Shown: positions 3,646 to 62,921 of the stretch, in pieces
Layout of the letters: each line of letters opens with the position of its first letter
Position numbering within the stretch: the first letter of the stretch is position 1
DNA from: Carcharhinus amblyrhynchos
Lineage: Eukaryota
Reading direction: 5' to 3'
Assembly (NCBI GenBank): GCA_965287045.1
Contig: OZ336882.1
Coordinates: forward strand, 40,300,001 to 40,364,000
Length of the DNA stretch: 64,000 nucleotides
The notes under the pieces: generated by a model
Databases searched by the model: none
What the model was told of the DNA's origin: nothing
Seen by the model: the letters and a program-made list of their open reading frames with translations, nothing else
Position numbers and translations under genes: made by a program

Positions 3646-4126
3646 TGAAAGTTTATCCATGAAACTGATGAGGATGTGATTGAGCTGTTTGCAGAAGCAG
3701 GCAAATATGGTTTGGGTTTTGTAAAAATGCTTTCATAGTGAACTCTTGTAAATTAATGAGTACTTTTTAGTAAAATTTAAAAATCACACATTTACCTTTT
3801 TTTTTCAAAAGTGGTAAGCTCACTGAAAATATAAATAATCACTGCTGTTTCTGCAATAGAGTCCAATGGGGGATAAAAATTGAATGTAAACTGGAAGTCA
3901 AGTTCTTTTGGGGAACATTGGGAATCTACAATTCTTGTGTGAGCCCACCAAACATTGGTATAAGAACAGGAAATATCAGAAGTGCTCAGCAGGTCTGGCA
4001 GAATCTCTGGAGAGAGAAACAGAGTTAATCTTTTCGGTCTGCATGTTTGTCATAATATTTGCATATGGGGAGAAGGAATTCCTGGTAAAACTGCCAACAG
4101 TTTATATCATATGCATAAAGTGGAGA

Positions 4127-12655: not shown

Positions 12656-12816
12656 ATGATGTGGGTATGCCAGCGTTGAACTGGCGTAAACACAGTAAAA
12701 AGTCTGACAACACCAGGTTTTAGTCCACCTGACGAAGGGGCTAACCCGAAAGCTTGCGAGTATATTATCAAATAAATAGGTTGGACTAAAACCTGGTGTT
12801 GTCAGACTTTTTACTG
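12656..12816 (+). mobile_element. Penelope-derived hairpin mini-element with hammerhead-like core
   Basis: Perfect 35-bp inverted repeat 12693-12727/12782-12816; ctgacga...gaaa core in the loop; direct repeat tgcagttcaagtagtc at 12640-12655 and 12815-12830. Confidence 0.8.
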
Positions 12817-15188: not shown

Positions 15189-15425
15189 AGTGATGTAGCG
15201 ATGCCGACGTTGGACTGGGGTAAACACAGTAAGAAGTCTCACAACACCAGGTTTAAGTCCAACCAGACCACTTGATAGTAATCCCACAAGCTTTCAGAAA
15301 TGGTGTTCCTTCGTCAGGTGTGAACCTTCCACACACCTGACGAAGGAACACCGTTCCCAAAAGCTTGTGGGATTACTATCAAATAAACTGGTTGGACTTA
15401 AACCTGGTATTTTGAGACTTCTTAC
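15189..15425. mobile_element. Penelope-derived hairpin mini-element, 94-bp arms
   Basis: Inverted arms 15229-15322/15332-15425; same leader as 12656 copy; TSD caatcttgcc 15179-15188 and 15425-15434. Confidence 0.8.
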
Positions 15426-20849: not shown

Positions 20850-21660
20850 TGGTTCACAAGCTGTGGCGTCACTGGCAAGGCCAGCATCTATTGCTCATCA
20901 CTCATTTCCCTGAGAAAGTAGAAGTGAGCTGCCTTCCTGAACTGCTGCATCCTTGTAGTGATTTTTTTTTTAAATTCAATTGTGGGTCATGGACATTGCT
21001 AGTTTGTCAGCATTTATTGCCCATCCCTAGTTGCCCAGAGGCAACTGAGAGTAAACCACATTGCTGTGGCTCTGGAGTCACGTGTAGGCCAGGTCAGGTT
21101 AGATTGCAGATTTCCTTCCCTAAAGGACATTAGTGAACCAGACAGACTTTTCCATGTGTGTAGGTACACCACAGCACTATTAGGTGGGGAGTTTGAGTTT
21201 TGACCCTGCAACTTTGAAGGAATAGCAATATATTTCCGAGTCAGGTTGGTGTCTGACTTGGAGGAAAACTTGCACGTGGTGATGGCTCTGTATACCTCCT
21301 ATCCTTGTGCTTCCAGGTGTAAGAGGTCACGGATTGGAAGGTGCTGTCACAGTAGTCTTGGCAAGTTGCTGCAGTGCATCTTGCAGACATTTGCGCTGCT
21401 GCCATGATGGAGGGTTGCTAGTTAAACAGGCTGCTTGGTCCTGGGTGGTGCTGAAATTCAAGTGTTGCTGGGGCTACTCATCCAGGCAAGTGGGGAGCGT
21501 TCCATTACACTCCTTGACTTGTGTTCCCTCGTAGATGTTGGGCAGACTTTGGAGAGTCAGAATGTGTATAAATCACTACAGCATTCCCAGCCCCTGACCT
21601 GATGGTGTGGCACGTTATTTTCGTGGCTGGCCCAGTTAAGTTTCTGGTCAATGGTAAGGA
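20850..21660 (-). mobile_element. Decayed LINE 3' portion with nested SINE (~20970-21150)
   Basis: Shares 3' end (gtcactggcaaggccagcatctattgctcatc) with the 3300-3645 SINE family; related pieces at 1-75 and ~59480-59610. Confidence 0.5.
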
Positions 21661-21664
21661 TCTT

Positions 21665-21985
21665 GGGAGGCGTAGTAGTACAGTGGTTAGCTCTGCTGCC
21701 TCACAGGGACTCGGGTTCAATTCCTGCCTTGGATGACCATGTGGAGTTTGCACGTGTGGATTTCCTGCAGGTGCTTTGAATTCCTCCCACAATCCAAAGA
21801 TGTGCAGGAAGGTTGATTGGCCATGTGAAATTGTCCTTTAACGACCCAAGATATATAGGTTAGGGAAGTAGAGAGGTGAATAAATAGAGTATCAGGGCTA
21901 GGGCCTGGGTAAGAAGCTTTGTTGAAGAGTGGTGCAGACTCACAGGGCCAATTGGTCTCCTTTTTGCACTGTAGGGATTCTGTGA
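21665..21985 (+). mobile_element. V-SINE (HE1-like)
   Basis: A-box-like tagtacagtgg, B-box gttcaattcc, tail gcactgtagggattctgtga. Confidence 0.8.
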
Positions 21986-22853
21986 TTTTCAAATGTAATA
22001 GAAACCTCTCCTTTGCTTTGCTAAGGAAATTAGAATGGGCACTCCAGGATGAGGAAAACCAACAGACTGAACATTGCTCAGAAGCCAAATCAAAGCTTTT
22101 TTTTTGAACACTTGGTACAAAAAGTATATTTTTAATCAGTGTTCGCTCTTCCAGACAGAGGGTTTATTGCATCTGCACAGCATGTGAATTGCATTTATTA
22201 TAACATTTGAATTGCCTATCATGTGACTTGATATCCCCCCCCCCCACCCCCGCAAACAACCTTAATATAAATCTCAAACTTTTCCTGTATCTAACATTTC
22301 AAAGAAGGGAGATAATTAACATGTAATTAAAGACTGCACTAATGTGTGTGTCCCAACCTGTATATTTTAATCCAAACAACCAAACATACACCAGTAACTC
22401 TGAATTTAAATTGTGAGCTGGAATGCTTCTACCATTGCTTAAATTGGAGATTTACCCCCCCTCCTCCACCAAACATCAGTCTCATCACCCTAACTGTGTA
22501 AATCAGCTGAAAAGGGACATTTAAGCAGTTCCTTTGGGATTCCAACAAATGTTATAGCAGGAGATTGAACAGCCTCTCTTTGAATTCATAACATAATGTA
22601 GGACAACACTTAATTACCAAGTCAGCTACCATATCTTGTAAATGAGCCAATGTCTAGGACTGCCAAAAGATGGCTTCTTTTCAATAAAAGGGCTGTGAAA
22701 TATTGTAATAACCTCACTATGTATAATTAAATCCTTAAAGCTTGTAGAAACTATTTAATCATTCAAGCACACACACATTGTTTATCCACGATTGGTTTTA
22801 GGAGGCTTTGTTCAGGCTGAACTAAAATACTAAAATTATATGTTTTGCTTCAG

Positions 22854-23005
22854 ATTACACCGGGCGGTAAGGCAGACCTAGCGAATGTTGGACTAGGAGA
22901 TACTGTGCTATCCATCAATGGTGAAAATACTGAAGGAATGACTCATCTGGAAGCACAGAACAAAATCAAATCCTGCTTCGGATCCCTGGCGCTCTCTCTG
23001 GGGAA
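22854..23005 (+). CDS. PDLIM7: PDLIM7 coding exon, C-terminal half of PDZ domain (152 nt, phase 0->2)
   Basis: Acceptor tgttttgcttcag|, donor |gtaagt; translates ITPGGKADLANVGLGDTVLSINGENTEGMTHLEAQNKIKSCFGSLALSLG+aa, typical ALP/Enigma PDZ (THLEAQNKIK). Confidence 0.95.
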
Positions 23006-23699
23006 GTAAGTTTACAGCAGAACATGGGTTGGGGAATGTGGCTTGTAACCTTTATAAATACAGTAGGGTTTATGTAAGAATAGTTGATGTATACCCTGTC
23101 TCTTGAATGTAATCCTGTGGTCTTCCTGCAAACTGAGATAATTGTAATTTGACGTGAAGCATGCCATATGGTATAATATGATGAATGACTTAGCTATGTT
23201 ATATTTATAGTTGTAAACAAATATCATTTGTTCCTCTGCTCAAAATGTGGGGGTTTTATTAGGTAGTTCATTGCATGTACTGGAGCGCTAAGTCCTTTAT
23301 TTTCCACTGAAGTCTGACCAAACAAATAGATTGAAGATTAGGACGAGGTGTGAGGGAGGGGTTCCATTACTTAATGAATATACTTCACAATTTATCTTCA
23401 ATTCAGCATTGCTAAGGCAAACGTTTTGAAGGCCTCAATACTTAAAAATGCTTCTTGCATGTGTTGTGTGACTTTATATTTTTGTAACAATTACTATCTC
23501 AATTTGTGGTTTTGTCTTCCAATAACAAAGTAGCAGGAGTGACAATAGTTGGCAAAAACATTAATGTTGCTTTCTTCCCACAAGATTTCCAGTAACTAAA
23601 TTTGTAACTAAAGTGGTTTTGAAGTTATTTATATTTCTGTTGTGAGCTGAATTATTTTGGGAGTAAGTACAACATAGTTTGTTAGGAAAATGAAAGATA

Positions 23700-24100
23700 T
23701 GAGCTAAATAGTTCATATTTTAATAGGACACATGGCCCAGAGACTTGAGGGTGTACAAACAAATCTTTTGAAGATGGCAGGGCAGGTTGAGAATGCTGTT
23801 TTATTGTTTTTAAGAAATGGGACTATTATTAACTGAGTCACAGAGTACAAACGCAAAGAGGTTATACTGAATGTTAATTTTTCAGCCTCAGCTGGGGGAT
23901 TCTATTTAATGCTGAGAATCACACAATGAGAAATTATCAAGATCTTGGGGAAGATGCAGAAAAAAATTATTAGAATAGTGTCAGTCAGGAGGGAATTCAA
24001 TTATGTGAAAGGACTGAAGGATCTGGAAGGCACTTCCTGAATGAGTGATCGAAGCAGATTAAATAGCACCGTTTGAAAGAGGATCTGATACATAGTTGAA
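23700..24100 (+). mobile_element. Heavily decayed CR1 fragment
   Basis: gagacttgagggtgtac...gagtacaaacgcaaagaggttatactgaa resembles the RDLGV...EYKSKEVML region of CR1 ORF2. Confidence 0.5.
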
Positions 24101-24299
24101 GAGGAGACAGGGGGGTGAGGTGAGGCAAGATGGGGCTGTGCCTCTATATAAAGAGCCTCTTTCTACATAAGCCAGTGCCGGTGGGGTGGCCATTGGAAAT
24201 GTATCTGCGAGTAATGTTCAGCCTGTTGGTTTTTCTCATCCTGGAGTGCCCATAGCCATTTCCCCAGCAAGATGAAGGAGAGGTTTCTGTTACATGCGA

Positions 24300-24494
24300 A
24301 AATCATAAAATCCCTACAGTGCAATAGGAGGTCAATTGACCCATTGAGTCTGCACTGACTCTCCAACAAAGCATCTTATTCATGTCCTATCCCTGTAACC
24401 CCATGAATTCACTCCTCTACTTCCCCTAACCTATACATCTTGGGACATTAAGGGACAATTTAGCGTGGCCAATCAACCTAACCTGCACATCATT
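24300..24494 (-). mobile_element. 5'-truncated V-SINE, part of an inverted duplication with 21796-22082
   Basis: Reverse complement of the 3' half of the 21665 SINE including its flank. Confidence 0.8.
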
Positions 24495-25876
24495 TGAGTC
24501 ACCTCTCATTTACACAAATGTATAAAACACAGCATAGTGACTTTCTGGGGACAGATCGGCTTTTCCACAAAGCACAGACTGAGACTTTGGAATTATCTTT
24601 CTAAAGCTCTCTGCCTCTTTTAAGACAACATATTTAAGCGTTAATAAGGAAAAAAATTAAATATTTGGTCAAAGGAGCCAAAGCAGTGATTAATTTCATG
24701 GTATAAGTGTGCGTGAATGGTTCTTGTTAATAGTAACACTGACTTTTATCTCACCGCATTAGTCACTAGCTTTGCAACATGCACTCAGTTTTTCAAAAAT
24801 AAGAACAAACTACACTGTGCTGCCATGATCAGAGTCAGAGAAAATTTAGTCATGAACATGCAACAATGAGGACAAGTATCCAGATATTGCCCAGGTGTTC
24901 TTTTTTACTAATGTTGGTTTGATTAAACTTTACCTGGACTTTTATCTTGCTGTTATATTTTGTACAACAGAGCATTCACTCGCTTTATGAAAATAATGTA
25001 TAATTAAATGACATGCATCATATTCCAAAGGAATACAGAAAACATTCCCTTGAAGGCTCAAAGCTAAAGATACCACAATGTGCTGAGCCAACCCACGTAG
25101 ACCAGGAAGATTCCACGTTCAAATGCTGACTGGATGACCTTAGCTTGGCAAGAGCAAGTGTGCTATAATTGGCCTCATTACTCCTTGACTTAGTGAAGTG
25201 AAAGAATAAATCATTCTGCACTCAATCACTATTCGGTGACCTTTGCTGCAAAGTGCGTGGTAGAGGATAGGATTGAACTTGGCTGAGAGATTCTTGATGG
25301 CTGAAAACTATGGCACCATTCCCTATCTACACACAAAATCGAAGAGGGCACCATCAACTTCCTGACTGCCACCCCATCCCTCCCTGCTAACAAGCAGACA
25401 GTCTTTCCCTTGCAGTCGTGCTCTTTACATTTACGATCTGATGAGATGGAATAATAATATTGGGGTACTAAAGAACCAATGATATAAAAGGAAAGAGATT
25501 GTGGCTTTTGACAGTTGAAGGGGTACTTTGAAGAATTGAAAGATTGTAATATTAGGAACAACCCAATGAAGGGCATGGAGGTGATCAAGATAATGGTTCC
25601 AAGCACAGCCTGTGTAGTAAATTTGGAAAGACATGTTTAGGATTCAGAACTAAGACCAAATATGTGTTGAGGTAATGTGAATTTCACTGAGTGGGTATAA
25701 CATCAGTGGTTGTGGTTAGCAAATTATAGAATATACTAGCTACATACAAGTCAGAATGGAGAGGGCATATGCACACTAGGGTAATCTAACGTAGTATGGA
25801 ATGGGAAGTAAAATGAGAATAGATTAATTTTGAAGACAAGTAAGAACATCTGCAAAACATTGGGGAGAGACAATAA

Positions 25877-32400: not shown

Positions 32401-35180
32401 CCAGGTGGAGGAAAAAATAGTCTTATTTAGGACTCCTTACCAGCATTCTGCTGTGATGGCATAACTCGTTTTGAAGGAGGGAGTAACTATTAAAATTGCA
32501 ATTTATTCACTTTGTTACTTTCCTTTTGAGAATGACGTAATGTCAAAGCAAATGCGGACGCCTTCATGTGGGGGGACTACTTTGAGCAAGTAAGTATCTG
32601 TGGAGGTACAGGGAAGAATTGAATGTTTATACTAAATCACACATAATAATACAATTTGGATAGTAATTCCACTGTGGAATGTGCTGTAATTAGTTTAGCA
32701 CCATTGTCTAAAAATAGGGACTAGTTGTTCCAGAGTTTATTGGGTTAATTTAAAGGATTAGTTGGCTTGAAATAAACTCATTTGTAACTTAAACCAGAAA
32801 CTTTGATATTAATGTGAATGCTCATAATATGATGGCATGGAATTCGGACGTAGTAATGCTGCAGTCCTTCAGTTCCTTTGTCAACGTTTGGAGGAATTCA
32901 CTAATTGCAGGAGCACATGAGGCAGCATCCAAGTTGGAGAATATAATGATTTGAAGTTTGAAAAACATGATCTTCTCAACCTCCAAAGTAACGTTGAGGT
33001 TGGAGGCTGTATATCATTCTTATCTCTTCTGCAGCCTAGATGGCAAATACAATTTAATCTGGAGAAGTGGAGATAATATACTTTAAGTGGTGATCAGTAG
33101 GAAGGGGGAAGCATGTAGTGGGTAAATAAATGTAATAGAAATATGCTGCAGAACTTTGATGGAAACAAATGGTTTTGCAAGTGAGTGTGTAACTAAATGA
33201 AGCCATACCACTATGCCCCATTAAAAGGATGTACGTAATACTCAAAAATGCAGTAAGGCACCAGCAGAATTACTTCCTTTGCATCTTAAAATATTTTTGA
33301 TGTATGGTGTGACTCTTAAACAAGCACAATTGAAGGATGTTCTCATTTTAAGTGTAGGGGGCATGACCAGATTTGTGGTGCAGATTTATTCAGGCAGAGG
33401 ATTTGATGGATAGTCATAAAAGTTTGAGAGATTTTGGCATATTTGTGGTGATGTACAATTGCATTAAGATCAGATTATACATGCCTCTGCATGAAAATGC
33501 ATAGGAAACGAGTCTTGAATTTTGAGTTGATTGAATGCAAATGCGTTTTGATTATATTACAACTTTTTTCTTTACTTAAAACATCAGAATAGAGGAAGTA
33601 AAGGAAAGATGCAGAAAGCCTTCATTAATTTCCCATGTTTACAGTAAATTGTAGCCTGATGAACGATTTGAGCTATTGATATTGTTTTTTGACTTGTTTC
33701 TAGAGTCACAACTATTGGCGCCAGTTTGTGAACAAAGCGGTGTCTGCTTCATGTTCGTGTTAACAAACTTGGCAGTTTTCAGCAGGCTGTTAAATAGAGC
33801 GTGACATGTTGACATGTTAACAAAATGCTCTAGCACAAGGTGGGTGTACAAAGCCTGTCAAACCATTTAGGTACCACTAGAAATGCAGCTCCAGCTAGCT
33901 GACTATGGGGTGACATTCGTTGGAGAAATCAGTCCATTGCTTTGTCCTTAAGAATGAACAATCTAAATTGCCACCTTTCAAAGTGAGGCAAGTGACATCT
34001 CTAATCAATATTATCCTTGGCCAGATTTTCACTTCCAAGGTGGGTAGCACAAGACAACAAATTTCCTGGCTCAATACCTCCACTTCGAGAGAAACCCATC
34101 TAATGACAGGACCTTCGCTCTGGCAATTGGGGTGTAGCACTGAGTTGGGCATACCATGCCACAACACCGATCAGATGTGACCATGGGCTGCCAGATGAGG
34201 CTACTGCAAAGGTACGCCTAATTTGCCAGGACTTCATCCCAATTGTTTCATTAAATTTTAGGGCCTCTAGCCTCATCTTTCATGCCCCACACTCTATGCC
34301 AATTAATCCATCACCCTTGACCCTTATGCCTTCCATGTAAACTCAACTCATCTGGTATCCATATGCCTGTATCAGTGAGATTTGGGGAAAAAAAACTCTT
34401 CTTGCAGTCATAACTACGTGTTGACGTTTCTCCAAGTGTCATTGTGAAAGCTTAAGCTGATTTCCACAAGCTGTAATGGTGAGGTACTGGTGGTGGAGGT
34501 CCTCAGTTCACAGTTGGATTAACTGCTCGGAGGTTTTTGAGGGATTAACTATCTTTGCAGGTCCAGAATGGGCAGACCTTAGGAGTCAGATTGAGATTAA
34601 TTACAAGGTTTAAATACAAATTGCAGCCCATTCCAAGCTTTAACGCTCCTTTTTTTTAATTCAAACAAATAAATTTCTCCTCATAACCCCACATCAATGA
34701 CAGCTAATCCTTTAATACCCGACTTGATCAATCAGTCTAACAATGAACAGAGTCCATTCTGCCTCACCCACCAAAATAATTATAGCTTGTGGAAAGCAGC
34801 CAAGCATTCACAATAGCCATTGGGGAAATGTCAGTATACAGTTATTGTGAATGCTAGTACTGGGTATTTTCAACTCTCACTGATGCAGACCACTTTAAAG
34901 GCCTTAATATTGGTGTGGGTGGGCTTCCTGTCCAAAGCCCCTGTCTGCTTTATTGTGGAATTGCATCTAGGTTGGAGCAAGCAAGATCCTGGAAAGAATC
35001 TTGTCCATGCAATTTTACGCCCACCTCTTCCTCCTCCCGCCACTTCCCCAAGATTAAAAACAGAAATGAATTGACAGATTTACCCAAAACTATTCAGACC
35101 AGTAGCATGACCAAGTTAATGAAAATATATTTAGTCAAATACCTTCTTTGTAAAGCTGAAACCAAAGTTAAGAAATCTTT

Positions 35181-46210: not shown

Positions 46211-46244
46211 AGTTGTTCGTTCCTCAGGAGGTGGTGATGAGAAG
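46211..46244 (+). CDS. PDLIM7: PDLIM7 small coding exon (34 nt, phase 2->0), (K)VVRSSGGGDEK
   Basis: Strong acceptor ttctttttggcttctttccccag|, donor aag|gtacag; phases exactly bridge the PDZ exon and the next exon; position matches the short post-PDZ exon (AQPVQSKPQK) of mammalian PDLIM7. Confidence 0.8.
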
Positions 46245-52720: not shown

Positions 52721-53395
52721 TGAGGTCAACAAAACCTGCTGTTCAAACTGGCTAGAAGATATAGTGGATGTATATTGCAATGGTGGCAAGGTCTTGTCAG
52801 CTATGCAAAAAGTTTTCAACTATGTAGGACAGCAGGCAAATTTTGGTCACTTTGTGCTTTCACTATTAGCAAATTGGTCTGTTGCTGCTTGTCCTATTCA
52901 CACGAAGGAATTAGGAATTGGAATCTTTTGTCCTTCTTTGCATCTGGGATGTCAATTAAACATTCATCTTCATGTAGTTTCCACTTCCTGCCCCCTCTGT
53001 TTGGTGTAATGGACTGGCCAATTCAATTGTCAAGGATTCAAGTGGAAAACACTTAACCTAATGTTTTCATTATTGTGCAATTGTTTTAACAGTTGCCTGA
53101 ACAATCTCAAAATGTATTGCCGCAAAACAAGTTTGTGGTGTAGTAACAATTCTCCAGGGATAATTGAGAATATTACTAAAGACCAAGTTCAAATTATGAA
53201 AATATATTATAAAGTAATTATTTACCTTCAATATTTGTGCCGTTTAGATTTCTAAATTGGCTATTCGGTGTTTTTTACTGTTGTGTAATTACATTCTTAA
53301 TTATATCTCTCAATGCTTGAGTTTTGCCATTGGATGATTGTATAACTGCATGTTGCTTGTGGTGTTTTTGAGTTTTTGTGTGTTTTTTTGCTCAG

Positions 53396-53664
53396 GATAT
53401 TATGTTTGCTGCACCTTCCATTCCGAAGTACTCGTTTGACTCCAGCATGCCATTGAATAAGACAGCAAGACCTTTTGGTGTTACAACCACGGGAAGTTCT
53501 AATTCAGGGACACCAATAAAGTCAGTGAGCTACAAACCTGTATCCCTATATACTCCACCTTCTGCTTTGCCTAGCACCACACCTGCATCTCAGACACAAC
53601 TACGGTATGGTACAGCCACAGAAAGGCACAGCTCAACTGCATCCACACCACGGCATCCAAATGG
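53396..53664 (+). CDS. PDLIM7: PDLIM7 coding exon (269 nt, phase 0->2), DIMFAAPSIPKYSFDSSMPLNKTARPFG...PRHPN(G)
   Basis: Acceptor tgtttttttgctcag|, donor aatgg|gtatgt; lies inside ORF 53378..53770; LNKTARPFG motif and terminal NG as in mammalian PDLIM7 (RYTFAPSVSLNKTARPFG...QQNG). Confidence 0.9.
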
Positions 53665-56081
53665 GTATGTCATAACATGCTTTCGAATGTCACAACAAAA
53701 TATAGTCCTCAATAAACTGCAGTTTCCAAATTGCTGCACCAGGAGAGGAAGATCCATTACTAAGTTATGATTTGCTGAATGTTTTTAAGTGTCAGTTTCA
53801 AGGAAATTATATAGGATCTGCTGGTGCATTTCAAAGTTAGGTGGACAGATTTCTTTCGGCCAAGTTATGTGTTTTGTTTCTTCTGGATAAGATTTTGAGC
53901 ATGATGAACTGGAATATAAACCACAATGATTTAGCAATGGATTTCCTCTCTCAAATCCATATGGCTGTTATGAAAGTGTCTAGGAAAGTTTTATCTGTTG
54001 CACTCAAATACAAATTTCATTAAAATGTCTTCTGCATGATGCATGACCGTTCAAAATTTTTAAGAAGTTGTAACTGTATGAACAAAATGTTTCACTGTTC
54101 ACTACCTTCAGAATATAGCATTTACAATTTGCTTTTGCTTTATTGCACACTCATTCACCAAAATATCTTTGGAGTAGTACCAACTGTGCTGGTAACATTT
54201 GCATTTTAAAACGATATGGAAATCTCCCATCTAATTAAGCGATTTGCCTTGGGTAATTGTGTGTCGTACTTTAAAATATTTCAGCACAAAGTGAATGTTC
54301 CTTGCTTTTTTTATAAATTATGTTTTGTACTTGATACGTCCAAGTTGTTCTGGGCTTCTGACATGCCCTAGTTTCATTTAGATTGTCACTCGTTGATTAA
54401 GTGCGTGCAACAGTCTGGCATGAGGTTACCGTGTTGGAGCTATGGATTGGCTGTAGTAGCATATGTTCATGTTGTGACACTTCCTTTTTAAGAAATTATA
54501 AATGAGCTTACTGGTCAGGGTCATATTCTACAAGTGTGCAGTAATGTGTACCAAACACAGGCCCATACTTGGAAAGGCATATATTTATCTTGGCCTATAT
54601 TGGGCCTCTTGAATGTGTACCTATTGCTCCAGTTAGCAAACCTTGATGGCAGTATTTGTCAAAATGCATGAATATTTATATAACGTCATTGATGCAGAAT
54701 CACTGAAACCCTCTGGCCGAAAATTTTGATCAATTTAAAAAGTAAGCATTTAGCTCACAAAATCGCACTGAGACACATTTTCAGAACTAAAACAGATGAT
54801 TTAATGGCATGCTGGGATTTAATGCCAGTGAGTTTTTGTTAACCCTGCGAGTACTTGAAAAGTGTCCTTTGCAATTTTACCACAACCGCTGCAAGCTTTT
54901 TACTTTAAATGGTGAAATTTTGAGAATCTGGTAAGATGATGTAACTTGGAAATACGCTTTCAGCCACGGTGCAAAAGTCAGTAAGAAAGAAAATTGGGCA
55001 AGTGTCAAAGACGCTGCTGATTCACTATTGTCCAGTCTGTACCTTTGCCAAAAAAAAATTTTGTCCAATAATTTATTCCTCTTCACTTATCTGCTAATAA
55101 TTCTGTGGTCTATCCCGTCTTTTGTGTGTTTCTCACACATATCCAATACAAATAAGGCTAAGTCTTAGTACTGGCAATGCTTTTGTCAATTTTAAATATT
55201 CACTAATTCGAGGACGGCTATCCAAGTTCAATTTCAACTTGTACACATTGTCGATAAATGAATTATTGCAACAATAGGAATATGCTAAGGGGGAGGGGAT
55301 GTTGCGTATGATTTTATTGGCGGACCAAGTAACAGTTAGGTTCTGCAGGGCAAACTCCGATAAATAATGTATTTGACGTCTTACAATTTGAAATTTGTTT
55401 TCAGTTTCCTTTCTTTTGTTCTCTTGTTTGCCATATAGCCCTCGAGCAGAACATAGTGCAAATTGTTAGCATGAGATACTTGTGATTTTCCTATTCTATT
55501 TGCATTGCGATGCAAAACAACAGGGAAGAAAATAAATACTTGTTTTTTTTCCTCATGAATTTGATACATGATCTGTGTGAAGAAAAGAATTGCAGGATGT
55601 ACCTACATCTGACTTTTAATGTATGTAGTCAACAGACCTGTCTAATTAGTCAAATGTTATCACAAGTCTGCTGTGCCTCAGGATGTTTATAATGGCAGAG
55701 TATTTTGAATTTTGTACCATCTGTTGATCGTATGGGTAGGGAAGACACTAAATGTTCTGATTACTTTTTCTGCATCATCCAGAAGAGCGGATGTATGTAC
55801 TTTTGTTTTTTTTTAACAACTTTTGCGTACAAATGTCTGAAATATTAATATCCAAAGGAAAACTTGAAGAGCAGTGTAACCTTTCAGAAAACCTGAAAGT
55901 TATTAAGAGTATGACTCTTGACTTCTCTTCCTCCTTCAGTTCTTCTTCCATCTATATGCTTTGATCTTTGCTACGATATTTTATTTGCACTGCCATTTTC
56001 TTTTATTAATTTTTCTTTAAGAGCTTTACCTGTTGGCTATAACTTCTATTTAATTCATCTTTTATCTTTCTTTCTCTTTAG

Positions 56082-57867: not shown

Positions 57868-58109
57868 CGATTTGGAGATGCCGGCATTGAACTAGGGTAA
57901 ACAAAGTAAGAAGTCTCTCAACACCAGGTTAAAGTCCAACCAGTTTATTTGATAGTAAACCCACAAGTTTTCAGCTGTGTGTGCCTTTTATATGCTCTGT
58001 TTGAGACCAGAACTCTCCACTCACCTGACAAAGGGGCAAACCCTGAAAGCTTGTGGGTTTACTATCAAATAAACTGGTTGGACTTTAACCCGGTGTTGTG
58101 AGACTTCTT
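57868..58109 (+). mobile_element. Penelope-derived hairpin mini-element
   Basis: Same leader; inverted arms ~57908-57974/58043-58109; TSD ccttctctgct 57857-57867 and 58110-58120. Confidence 0.8.
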
Positions 58110-58739
58110 CCTTCTCTGCTTGCACAGCAAATACAAGGACAAATATCTAAACTAAAGAAGGGTTCAAACTGGTAGCCTCAGTTTCCCTTTTATGGCAGAC
58201 ATTCTGGAGAACCTTGCATTTGAGAGGGTGAAGCTTCACAAGAATTTATTTCTGGTTTTTCCACCTTGCTTTCTTCCACATAATTATTCAGGAAACCATA
58301 CAAACATCTGTGCTGGTATCTTAGCTTGATCTGAATGCATATCTAGGAGCCTATATTATTTCTTTCCTTATCATCAAAAGGCAAAAAAAAGCAGTTTGAT
58401 ATTACTGTCCTTAAACAAGGATGAGGCACATCTCTCATATTCTACGATGTAAACCAATAGTTATAAACAGTAACAGAATAATACACGTCCAAGGTTGTAA
58501 GCGCTGAGCCAAAGCTGGCAGCAATCACAAGTGCACAAGTGAGGAGCAGGTAACTGATGCCTCAAATGGCTGCTGTTAATGATGCCTTTAGCTTGGAGAT
58601 TACAGCGTAATGAATGTTGGGAGAGAAAAGGATGGATTCAGTTTTGTCACAGGTGGCTTTGTTCTCATCAGAAATTAATTGAAAATAACTCCAAGGCTGA
58701 GATTCTGCATTAGGAAAATGAATTGCTGCTGCCGGCAGG

Positions 58740-58833
58740 AAACACAGTAAAAAGTCTGACAACACCAGGTTTTAGTCCAACCTATTTATTTGATAATATA
58801 CTCGCAAGCTTTCGGGTTAGCCCCTTCGTCAGG
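58740..58833 (-). mobile_element. Penelope-derived solo terminal unit with hammerhead-like core
   Basis: Reverse complement identical to 12728-12816; caggaaac repeated at 58736-58743 and 58830-58837. Confidence 0.8.
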
Positions 58834-59380: not shown

Positions 59381-61990
59381 TTTGTGCTACCATGCTGCCC
59401 TTTTGTAGAGTAATCAAAGAAAAATGAGGAAAAGTATTATGGTCATGATCATGGACTCTTAAAATATATTCAGTCATAGGGTGCGAGCAATGCTGGCCAG
59501 CAGATGTTGTCCCTGAGAAGGTGATGGTGAACCACCTACTTGAACTACTGTAGTGTGATGTTAGTCAAAATGCTTGGGGAGTGAGGGGAAGTTTTTGACT
59601 CCGTAACTGACAAGTTATATACAAAATTTACAATATACATGAACATTTGATAATCCCAAAGCAAGGGCAAAGCGGAAGGATAACATATTTTTCAGAAGTA
59701 AACTCAATACTGGTATTCATGTTAAACTGACCTTATAAATTTAAATCAGAAGCCTTCTGTTAGACTGGCATTACTTTTAAATTTGCCAGAAATGTGTTGA
59801 AGGCTGCAAAGCTTTTCAACTGTGCCATGACAGATCTATTATAATGTAAAGGCTTTCATGACACTAGATGTTCAAACTGTGTATGATGATACAATAACAT
59901 TCATTATTCCACGGTTTCCACTGCCACAGGACATATCAAATTATTTATCTGTACTGCTTTATGATGGAGCATTGAAGGTCAGAAAGCAGTAACAGTCCTT
60001 TCCCTTTACGCTACAAGTTTACTTCCTACAGAAATTGCCCCGTACGCTGAGGACAAATTTCCAGGGACCATTATTGGGGGTGAGGGGGGCTGACTTTGTT
60101 AGCTGCAGAGATGAGTTCGTAAATTAGAATTAATATCACTTTTTTTTTGAAAAAGCAACAATGAACAAAGTTTACGCATCATTCTGATATCTGTCACCTC
60201 TCTGTTTCCAAATGCACTTAGAAAATCTTGAGACTTCAGTAGTGCATCTTTGCCTATCAAGTCATTTGTTTTACATGTTAAAATACTTCAAGTTCTGTGT
60301 TTTAAAACAATGGTTACAAGTAATATGTTTTGTTGAGACTCCTTAATATCATATATGCATAAGTCAAAAATTTAATTTCCCAACTCTATTTGAAAATTGA
60401 CATTTAAAATGTGCATATTGCATGCCATGTTAGTACAGTTGCTGACAAAGTAGTGAAGAGTTTTGTTCTGTTTTCAGCACAAAAAACAGTTAGCTGTTCT
60501 CAATAATAATAGAAATCTATGGACCTTCTTAAATTAGTTCCTATATTTCACTTTCTGTTCATCTCCTTTTCCCATTCCTTGTTTGCTGAGGCTTTACGTG
60601 TTTCATTCTAACTTTGATTTTTGTACTGGAATATACTCACAGTGAAAATGAGGATAAATTTGAGAGTCGTCCCAAGTTTCATGTTCTTCGAGATGAAGAA
60701 ATGCTTCAAGATCTTGGTGACTATAGGTAAGTGGAGCAAATGTGAAACCTGTCCTGAGTGTAACTGGCTTTAAACCTTCTGCCTTTGTTGTCAATGCGAA
60801 TGGTGAGGATTTATTAAAAAGTAGAAGTATTGGGCAACTCTGCATTTCTTAATTTTGGCATCTTGCAATTTAAGAATTTTTGTAGCCATCAGTGCAAAAA
60901 TAACTTGAACTTGGATAAACTTGATTTTTCTTTCCAAAGGCAGAAGTTGATTTCCTTTGGACTGGAAAATCAGATTCTATAAATTTTTTTAAGCAGTTTG
61001 TGCTATGTTGAGTTTTATAATTTGAATCAATACCGATTTGACTAAAGTAAACTGCAGGGGGCTGGAGAACTTCTAGTATGCATTTATGAACTAGATTTGG
61101 CATTTCAAAATTATAAAACATTTGTAAGTTTAATGTGCACTCTGAATGCATGATATGCTGTCAAAAGTACAATTTAATTTTATTTTTAGTATTGTGGAGA
61201 AATAAACCTCCAGTTTAAAGTATACCTTTTCTTATAAATGGTGCCCTGCTCTGCATGACTCGATGTTGCAGTAGTGTGATGTATTAGCTATTGAGCCATA
61301 TGGCAACAATGAAAGTAGCCTTGGCAGTTTTGATTCTTTTGCACCTATTTGGTGAAGTGAGATTAAATAGCAGATGGCGTTACTATAAACAGAGTTGCAC
61401 AATATTACAAAATGACTCAGTTGAATTTGTGGGGTTATTGTCATCTACATCCCCTCTGTCTTTGAGAAAAATATCCTGAATATTACATGGTCAAAATAAC
61501 TGTTGAAAATTTGATACCAAACTTCTAATATGTGACCTTTTGCTGAAGTCCATTTTTCTATATGATTACTCTGAGTACTGGAAGTTGCAGGATAATATTC
61601 CAATGCAGTACTGTCTTGATCTCTCGCCAAAGCCACAACCTAGATTGGTAGTCTCTTACTTTTGTATATATCTTTCTAACTTCTCCTAATTCCTACATTT
61701 TGGAATATTGAACTTGAATGGCTCACATTTTCTTCTCTACCAAACATCCTCTGTGCAAAAGAGTGGTTTCCAGTTTTAAATTTTGAAATTACAACAAGTT
61801 TGACAGAAAAAAATATCAATATCAGCAGAAGTGTAGTTTGGTTAATATTACCTAGGTTCCAGTTGGCTGCTGTATCATTTCATTCATCTACTGATGCTTA
61901 TGTTCTTTTGGAGGGACCTTTGCACACCTCCAAAATTCTCTTATCTGTGTAATTTATTTTCCTGCAGTAATGACGAGATAACGAATGATC

Positions 61991-62742: not shown

Positions 62743-62769
62743 CAATACCCAACAAAATGCATTATATAG

Positions 62770-62921
62770 GCATTCTCTCAAGCTTGATCAACGTGTCATT
62801 GTCCCCAACGATGCTAGTAAGAAGCGGCTGATAGAGGATACTGAGGATTGGCAGCCAAAAACAGGAACAACTCAGTCCCGTTCTTTCCGTATCCTTGCTC
62901 AACTGACAGGCACAGATTTCA
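62770..62921 (+). CDS. PDLIM7: PDLIM7 coding exon (152 nt, phase 2->1) with conserved QSRSFRILA motif
   Basis: Acceptor attatatag|, donor ttca|gtaagt; HSLKLDQRVIVPNDASKKRLIEDTEDWQPKTGTTQSRSFRILAQLTGTDF+a (next codon compatible with ATG of MQDPDEE). Confidence 0.95.

Follow-up and report, generated by a model that had tools for sequence, protein, structure and literature searches.

At TBXT, an inverted pair of Alu elements loops out an exon. Such pairs are enriched around skippable human exons according to the available text of PMC13019027, which also reports that skippable and constitutive exons hardly differ in folding energy (d -0.12). Inverted copies can also arise through DNA repair. In the available text of Pace et al. 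2009 (PMC2671141), proximal repair-mediated duplications (RDs) are described as inserts no shorter than 50 bp whose single donor lies less than 5 kb away, which may be inverted and are often found in introns; 824 human cases have a single donor within that distance, the mean size is 162 bp and the maximum 619 bp, and 753 of 1136 are under 3 kb. Their junctions carry microhomology, filler or a deletion, a poly(A/T) was absent in 39 of the 39 examined, and their divergence is consistent with neutral decay. RD density per Mb of transposon DNA was 0.62 in human and 0.19 in zebrafish; sharks lie outside the survey.

Here we analyse an inverted pair of ~300-nt arms that brackets a PDZ exon of PDLIM7 within a 64,000-nt stretch of Carcharhinus amblyrhynchos DNA (the window). 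The pair is real and local, and most likely a neutral repair-mediated duplication. Specifically, we hold with a probability of roughly 0.75 that arm B is an inverted ~300-nt copy of arm A, likely made by DNA-level repair and likely drifting neutrally since. The class is already published, in a survey that did not include sharks. Like the proximal RDs (PMC2671141, available text), the pair combines a single other copy, ~300 bp in length, 2.1-kb spacing, an intronic position, inverted orientation and the absence of a tail. Unlike the published acceptors, which interrupt transposons (a property of the detection route and not of the mechanism), arm B does not visibly do so; moreover, the published junctions were judged against empty sites in relatives, whereas the relatives at PDLIM7 showed none. 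Templated insertions by MMBIR (PMC8421209) and short-range template switches (PMC7954356) likewise leave an inverted copy of a nearby template in the germline, but in the available text of these papers the MMBIR templates were sought within 100 bp and the switches are short-range events, as opposed to a template 2.1 kb off and a copy of 300 nt at PDLIM7.

The arms at PDLIM7 also resemble inverted Alu pairs (PMC13019027, PMC10901737), such as that at TBXT, in having ~300-nt arms of ~80% identity, a few kb apart, around one exon, and in their strong predicted duplex. Yet inverted Alu pairs stem from two insertions, as opposed to a single DNA copying event that included unique sequence; skipping at PDLIM7 would break the reading frame, and the stem here is a predicted one.

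Inverted arms in PDLIM7 introns

Among 65 pairs from a self-BLAST of the window, the top one aligned 21793-22079 (+) with 24497-24209 (-), at 81.4% identity across 290 columns (E 3e-71). Identity extends over both the SINE part (158/195) and the flank part (78/94), the longest exact match being 19 nt, and the arms are 2129 nt (2.13 kb) apart. The original prediction, which described reverse-complementary arms of ~290 bp lying ~770 and ~1200 nt from the exon, was accurate to within 3-5 nt at the arm ends, and the measured distances of arms A and B from the exon are 774 and 1203 nt. The peptide echo that it saw in the open reading frames of the two arms is present as well, yet merely mirrors the DNA match, beyond which nothing was found that would speak for a coding role. 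Features of the locus are collected in Table 1.

Table 1. Features of the inverted pair and of the enclosed and following PDLIM7 exons (window positions)
Feature	Position	Strand	Evidence or remark
tRNA-headed SINE, head present, two internal deletions	21674..21985	+	aligned to copies from the window and the genome
Arm A, likely donor: the 193 nt at the 3' end of the SINE and 94 nt of flank	21793..22079	+	self-BLAST, alignment; runs on into SINE head
Flank present only in arms A and B	21986..22079	+	genome searches, fetched SINE copies, relatives
Site of ~14 nt absent from arm A here; relatives E and H still share them with arm B	22078..22080	+	contig pieces starting at 24197
Coding exon, 152 nt, second half of the PDZ domain of PDLIM7, phase 0 to phase 2	22854..23005	+	ag/gt ends, protein matches
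Arm B, likely acceptor: inverted copy beginning mid-SINE body	24194..24497	-	self-BLAST, alignment, relatives
Next coding exon, 34 nt	46211..46244	+	joined to the upstream exon, gives a stop after codon 40

The SINE is likely of the shark V-SINE/HE1 kind, a label taken from the literature. Its tail was read as a short tandem tail of the CR1 type by motifs that we take to mark that type. By description, which makes the label a lead, the head of tRNA type and the short CR1-type tandem tail agree with the V-SINE HE1 and its partner LINE HER1 of sharks and rays (PMC3747384, available text).

A DNA search with the 94-nt flank returned two matches in the 2.92-Gb genome. The same number was obtained with a 31-nt pattern at up to 3 mismatches, for which the reversed control gave none, while the SINE part, serving as positive control, returned 2411 candidates. 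We scored 40 of these candidates and fetched 30, 29 of them besides this locus, and none of the 29 carried the flank (flank scores 12-23 vs 108). In addition, a search at 80% in the whole-run contigs of four relatives recovered the arms and one stray 36-nt piece only. The flank is hence unlike that of other SINE copies, as originally predicted, and two matches genome-wide are the outcome that the prediction had tied to a local event rather than to a SINE subfamily tail.

Measured against a consensus built from the 29 copies, arm A differs by 30 changes and arm B by 25; 11 of these are shared and derived. Among 406 other pairs of copies the mean of shared derived changes is 3.4 and the maximum 11, so that this test alone is not clean, one of the 406 control pairs equalling the arms; rare shared derived changes number 4 between the arms, and average 0.6 with a maximum of 4 in the other pairs. 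Taken with the two-match flank, the 11 shared changes indicate that joint copying of the flank and the 3' part of the SINE took place after the SINE had aged. Judged from sequence, the arms are a local copy of an already aged SINE plus flank, not a subfamily tail. Arm A is the likely donor, since it runs on into the SINE head, whereas arm B begins mid-body. With the flank confined to two matches, the SINE half tied to arm A by shared derived changes, a gap of 2129 nt (donor more than 50 bp and less than 5 kb away) and a length of ~300 nt (at most ~620 bp), the pair lies within the published range for proximal RDs.

The junctions of arm B offer candidate overlaps of 3 nt on the inner side and of an imperfect 5-6 nt on the outer side. 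They lack a tail of at least five A or T letters (at most a templated T4), and the inner one also lacks a SINE tail repeat. The genome holds no paralogous empty site of arm B; the DNA inward of it is single-copy in the genome, the DNA outward of it had no match in the 1.26-Mb control sample described below, and no repeat is visibly split by arm B. A 6-nt near-repeat considered as a target-site duplication around arm B was dropped, since relatives shift the inner boundary 15 nt inward. On the donor side, 8 of the 16 flank mismatches of arm A fall in two 4-nt clusters.

Arms in related sharks

Contigs from six of 23 runs, representing six organisms, were aligned to the locus; organisms B and G were left out. 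The flank of arm B was covered in all six relatives and that of arm A on a piece of its own in five, its presence in relative F being inferred; an empty site was seen in none of the six. In relative D, which is 3.3% away, one 2533-nt contig is collinear over 21900-24446, across both arms. We infer that the copying is older than the split from relatives 3-7% away.

Within arm B, 24209-24497 aligns to arm A of this genome, and 24194-24208 aligns only in relatives. In relatives E and H the left-arm match to arm B begins at 24197 and three more letters extend it to 24194, placing the inner limit of the copied stretch ~15 nt further inward. The longer left arm in these relatives implies that the copy was ~304 nt in total and that arm A has since lost ~14 nt here.

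The arms are closer to each other in relative E, with 4-9 differences in 103 sites against 16 in 94 flank sites here (p 0.004-0.09), figures that are bounds because only differences away from piece ends were counted. Relative F has a 134-nt contig that ends at 24194 at a depth of 15.1 beside 9.7, and in its 31-letter graph this contig probably represents both arms collapsed, with at most a few differences. The age of the arms is inconsistent under a simple clock, the arms of E and F being alike and the SINE halves here about 83% identical. Two accounts would fit, namely faster decay of arm A here, or an older copying event with later homogenisation of the inner part; the about 83% identity of the SINE halves leans, tentatively, to the latter.

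Two paired sites appear to have changed together. Site 22072/24216 is U-A in E and F, C-G here and apparently U-G in D, and site 24255 is C in both arms of E and G in both arms of H. One such compensatory coincidence has a chance of ~0.1 (a rough figure), and the two sites are a weak hint of gene conversion or compensation. Some gene conversion between the arms, tentatively proposed as a minority possibility, would not conflict with neutral drift. The idea that arm B had entirely overwritten arm A in E was dropped, the left arm of E keeping arm-A letters at 24234, 24256 and 24264.

Local duplications and the origin of the copy

To set the pair in context, we assembled a control sample of 1.264 Mb from the window and from 10-kb stretches, 20 of them neighbouring it and 100 scattered, the latter at round coordinates chosen by hand on contigs C1-C25. 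Stretches were compared all against all; tandem arrays and gaps below 50 nt were dropped, and local pairs were kept if at least 50 nt were unmatched elsewhere or if their identity was clearly higher. Of 27 local pairs kept, 9 inverted and 10 direct ones have a gap of at least 400 nt; left out of this count were 7 inverted pairs with smaller gaps, which may be MITE-like, and 1 near-tandem direct pair. The scattered megabase alone contributed 6 inverted and 9 direct pairs. Genome-wide searches with six of the nine inverted pairs, the PDLIM7 pair included, found the neighbour to be the only or by far the closest copy in all six: four had exactly two matches, and the other two were local copies of old repeats (94 and 97% identical, vs at most 87 and 83% elsewhere). 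Counting all inverted pairs of at least 200 nt and at least 75% identity that lie 0.4-3 kb apart gave 12 in the 1.264 Mb.

Individual pairs bear on the mechanism. In L129 (2413-2706 and 3139-3457; G000:C10), the 5' half of a SINE together with ~110 nt of upstream flank has an inverted copy 432 nt away, with two matches genome-wide. An 81-nt inverted insert in L127 splits a SINE between consensus positions 184 and 228, and inverted inserts in L132 and L047 interrupt sequence that, read by eye, is LINE-like and that we take to be LINE. These three inserts interrupt a transposon as the published acceptors do and arm B visibly does not, and several local copies have no match to the SINE of PDLIM7. 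Since L129 mirrors the PDLIM7 case and the inserts of L127, L132 and L047 interrupt repeats, the local duplications point to a DNA-level process that is blind to SINE direction. At PDLIM7, a broken end near 24194-24497 would have invaded intron DNA 2.1 kb away, copied ~300 nt of arm A and rejoined, through synthesis-dependent strand annealing or a template switch, and arm B would then have drifted neutrally.

Retrotransposition is not expected to land 2.1 kb from its source, and a copy at that distance speaks against the unlikely alternative of an RNA route, in which a Pol III transcript of the SINE in arm A, read past its tail to a T4 ~110 nt downstream, would have been reverse-transcribed at a break close by, through 3' transduction or through repair templated by RNA in cis. 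Arm B is indeed 5'-truncated while arm A keeps the head and, given the A that relatives have at 24196, the copy ends inward in a T4 run, as a Pol III transcript would. However, that end has neither poly(A) nor SINE tail repeat, transcription would have had to pass an earlier T4 at 21986, several local copies are unmatched to this SINE, and the copying of a SINE 5' half with upstream flank in L129 is something 3' transduction cannot accomplish; SINEs with LINE-derived tails are also presumed to need stringent 3'-end recognition (PMC3747384, available text). Of the routes that the original prediction offered, the local event stands, given the two-match flank and its absence from the 29 other copies, whereas 3' transduction is disfavoured in the light of the SINE-less local copies and the upstream flank of L129; unlinked copies with tail and target-site duplication would mark the latter, and the genome holds the linked copy only. 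Two independent insertions of a SINE subfamily with the flank as its tail are largely refuted: a genome search can miss repeats, but both types of search gave two flank matches, none of the 29 close copies carries the flank, and the contigs of four relatives at 80% held the arms and the one stray 36-nt piece. Staggered-cut inversions leave inverted duplicates, and the geometry of the arms permits recombination between them; the arms might, on that account, be breakpoint scars of a 2.1-kb inversion that later flipped back, or now drive an inversion polymorphism. We consider this very improbable, as the enclosed exon lies on the strand of the gene, which would be broken if the exon were inverted, exact matches between the arms reach 19 nt at most, the left arm of E carries arm-A letters at three sites, and the contig of relative D is collinear across both arms, a result that also lends no support to the inversion-prone segment suggested originally. 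Repair by copying of arm A is the reading we keep.

The sample amounts to ~15 candidates per Mb, an upper estimate for local duplications because the genome-wide search covered six inverted pairs and left out the direct pairs and three inverted ones; the scattered megabase, at least 40% of which is repeat, contains 2 repeat-interrupting inverted inserts. Set beside the RD densities of 0.62 (human) and 0.19 (zebrafish) per Mb of transposon DNA, these figures come from a different method and small numbers. The single PDLIM7 locus matters little, being likely one of many thousands of local repair copies in the genome, and the apparent density of local duplications in this shark is a lead of wider interest from a small sample examined by a different method.

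Several other repeats were noted in the sample. The insert in L047 (1986-2061 and 4009-4085) is a 76-nt, two-copy inverted insert ~9 kb upstream of the first PDLIM7 coding exon; its junction has a second partial repeat at ~3838-3920, a sign that the template may have been switched at least twice. L045 (1183-1485 and 3171-3467; G000:C13), which precedes the window by ~50 kb, has a 303-nt inverted local duplication of 94% identity, between whose arms lies a LINE-like fragment of ~1.25 kb, presumably LINE. Young repeat tails form an inverted pair of 97% at 1.9 kb in L099 (6593-6989 and 8914-9310) and a direct pair of 99.7% at 1.3 kb in L091 (6667-7008 and 8314-8655); each pair may stem either from young insertions made independently or from local copying. 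Near 60.0 Mb, a whole 10-kb stretch (L084, 139-9990; G000:C13) is filled by a long and diverged tandem array that is almost unmatched in the other stretches. Within the window, 34367-34477 and 34779-34888 are a 110-nt inverted pair of 73% with a gap of 301 nt, unmatched elsewhere in the 1.26-Mb sample; the pair may represent an old non-autonomous DNA transposon. Two pieces of a palindromic MITE-like family, at 12688-12816 and 58740-58833, lie in PDLIM7 introns at a distance of 46 kb and are 100% identical across 89 nt in inverted and 40 nt in direct orientation, and other copies (15192-15425, 57869-58113) are 76-86% alike; the perfect match is a recent copy or conversion.

Predicted RNA stem around the PDZ exon

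Twelve PDLIM7 coding segments were placed across 121 kb, and the enclosed exon lies between introns of 39,771 and 23,205 nt. Its product is 98% identical to houndshark PDLIM7; of 27 protein matches, 25 were to PDLIM7 of sharks or rays or to an unnamed PDZ protein from a shark, and two were to herring PDLIM5b. A 2.13-kb gap placed in PDLIM7 would enclose an exon with a chance of ~1 in 5.

The original prediction had the arms form a stem that encloses this exon, and in silico folding agrees: the duplex is predicted at about -390 kcal/mol (-392 in the exon-spanning comparison; antisense -388), and the minimum free energy fold of 21600-24600 contains 249 arm-to-arm pairs. Among 63 exon-spanning repeat pairings tested, the arms are the strongest and the nearest strong one, at 2.1 kb, followed by a pairing of -347 at 35 kb. 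The exon thus has long complementary arms in both flanking introns, the architecture associated with circRNA formation and exon skipping. In the pre-mRNA the arms would plausibly pair like an inverted Alu pair, and A-to-I editing of the paired arms is plausible by the same model.

Skipping would have consequences for the transcript. Joining the upstream exon to 46211..46244 bore out the frameshift that had been predicted, with a stop at nucleotide 120 of the coding sequence (after codon 40), whereas joint skipping with the 34-nt exon would keep the frame (186 nt). For the early-stop transcript, decay or re-initiation at a later Met would be expected. A 152-nt circle of the exon has stops in every frame of its translation. 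Since skipping breaks the frame, skipped transcripts or circles would be at most a low-level by-product.

Could the stem nonetheless be under selection as a regulator, looping out the exon so that a circRNA, a decay-bound mRNA lacking the exon or a PDZ-less product results, and be kept by compensation or conversion? The rank and closeness of the arms among exon-spanning pairs (-392 at 2.1 kb, next -347 at 35 kb), the 249 pairs, the long flanking introns, the presence of the copy in all six relatives examined, the co-changed sites 22072/24216 and 24255 and the enrichment of inverted Alu pairs around skippable human exons (PMC13019027, available text) would all fit. Signs of selection were not seen. 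Mismatches between the arms show no wobble bias, with 17 of the G-U-compatible type vs 14 of the A-C type (p 0.72), and the antisense duplex (-388) matches the sense one (-390) in stability. In three relatives, arm-A contigs diverge by 2.5, 2.1 and 4.9% and the enclosed intron by 1.3, 1.8 and 3.3%, none of these contrasts being significant, so that no constraint is seen on arm A, which diverges no more slowly than the intron and has lost ~14 nt. A function that maintains the stem is not supported by these tests. Arm A moreover carries the deletion and two mismatch clusters, one compensatory coincidence has a rough chance of ~0.1, the exon's donor is a full gtaagt consensus, and the 1.264 Mb hold 12 comparable inverted pairs. 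Short exons circularise poorly (PMC4479058, available text), and folding energy hardly separates exon classes (d -0.12; PMC13019027, available text). We regard a selected stem as improbable, and prefer neutral drift after copying by repair.

A broader proposal would be that local repair duplications are several-fold denser in sharks than reported for other vertebrates and seed RNA stems, and that at PDLIM7 the PDZ exon is looped out by such a stem, whose arms conversion has kept alike in some lineages, so that the gene is tuned via skipping and decay or via a circRNA; as a whole we consider this improbable. The PDLIM7 pair does offer a natural test of whether a new inverted repeat alters the splicing of a conserved, frame-breaking exon, as the repeat would be absent in more distant sharks if the dating holds. 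Literature on PDLIM7 circRNA, shark circRNA, templated duplications in sharks and conversion of inverted repeats yielded nothing on the locus among the matches listed, and PDLIM7 is named 0 times in the main text of the bamboo shark circRNA paper (PMC7759564).

The recorded alternative splicing of PDLIM7 lies downstream of the PDZ exon. In the window, exons 60641-60727 and 62765-62917 are used in only some shark PDLIM7 isoforms, and exon 53390-53665 contains an apparent alternative donor.
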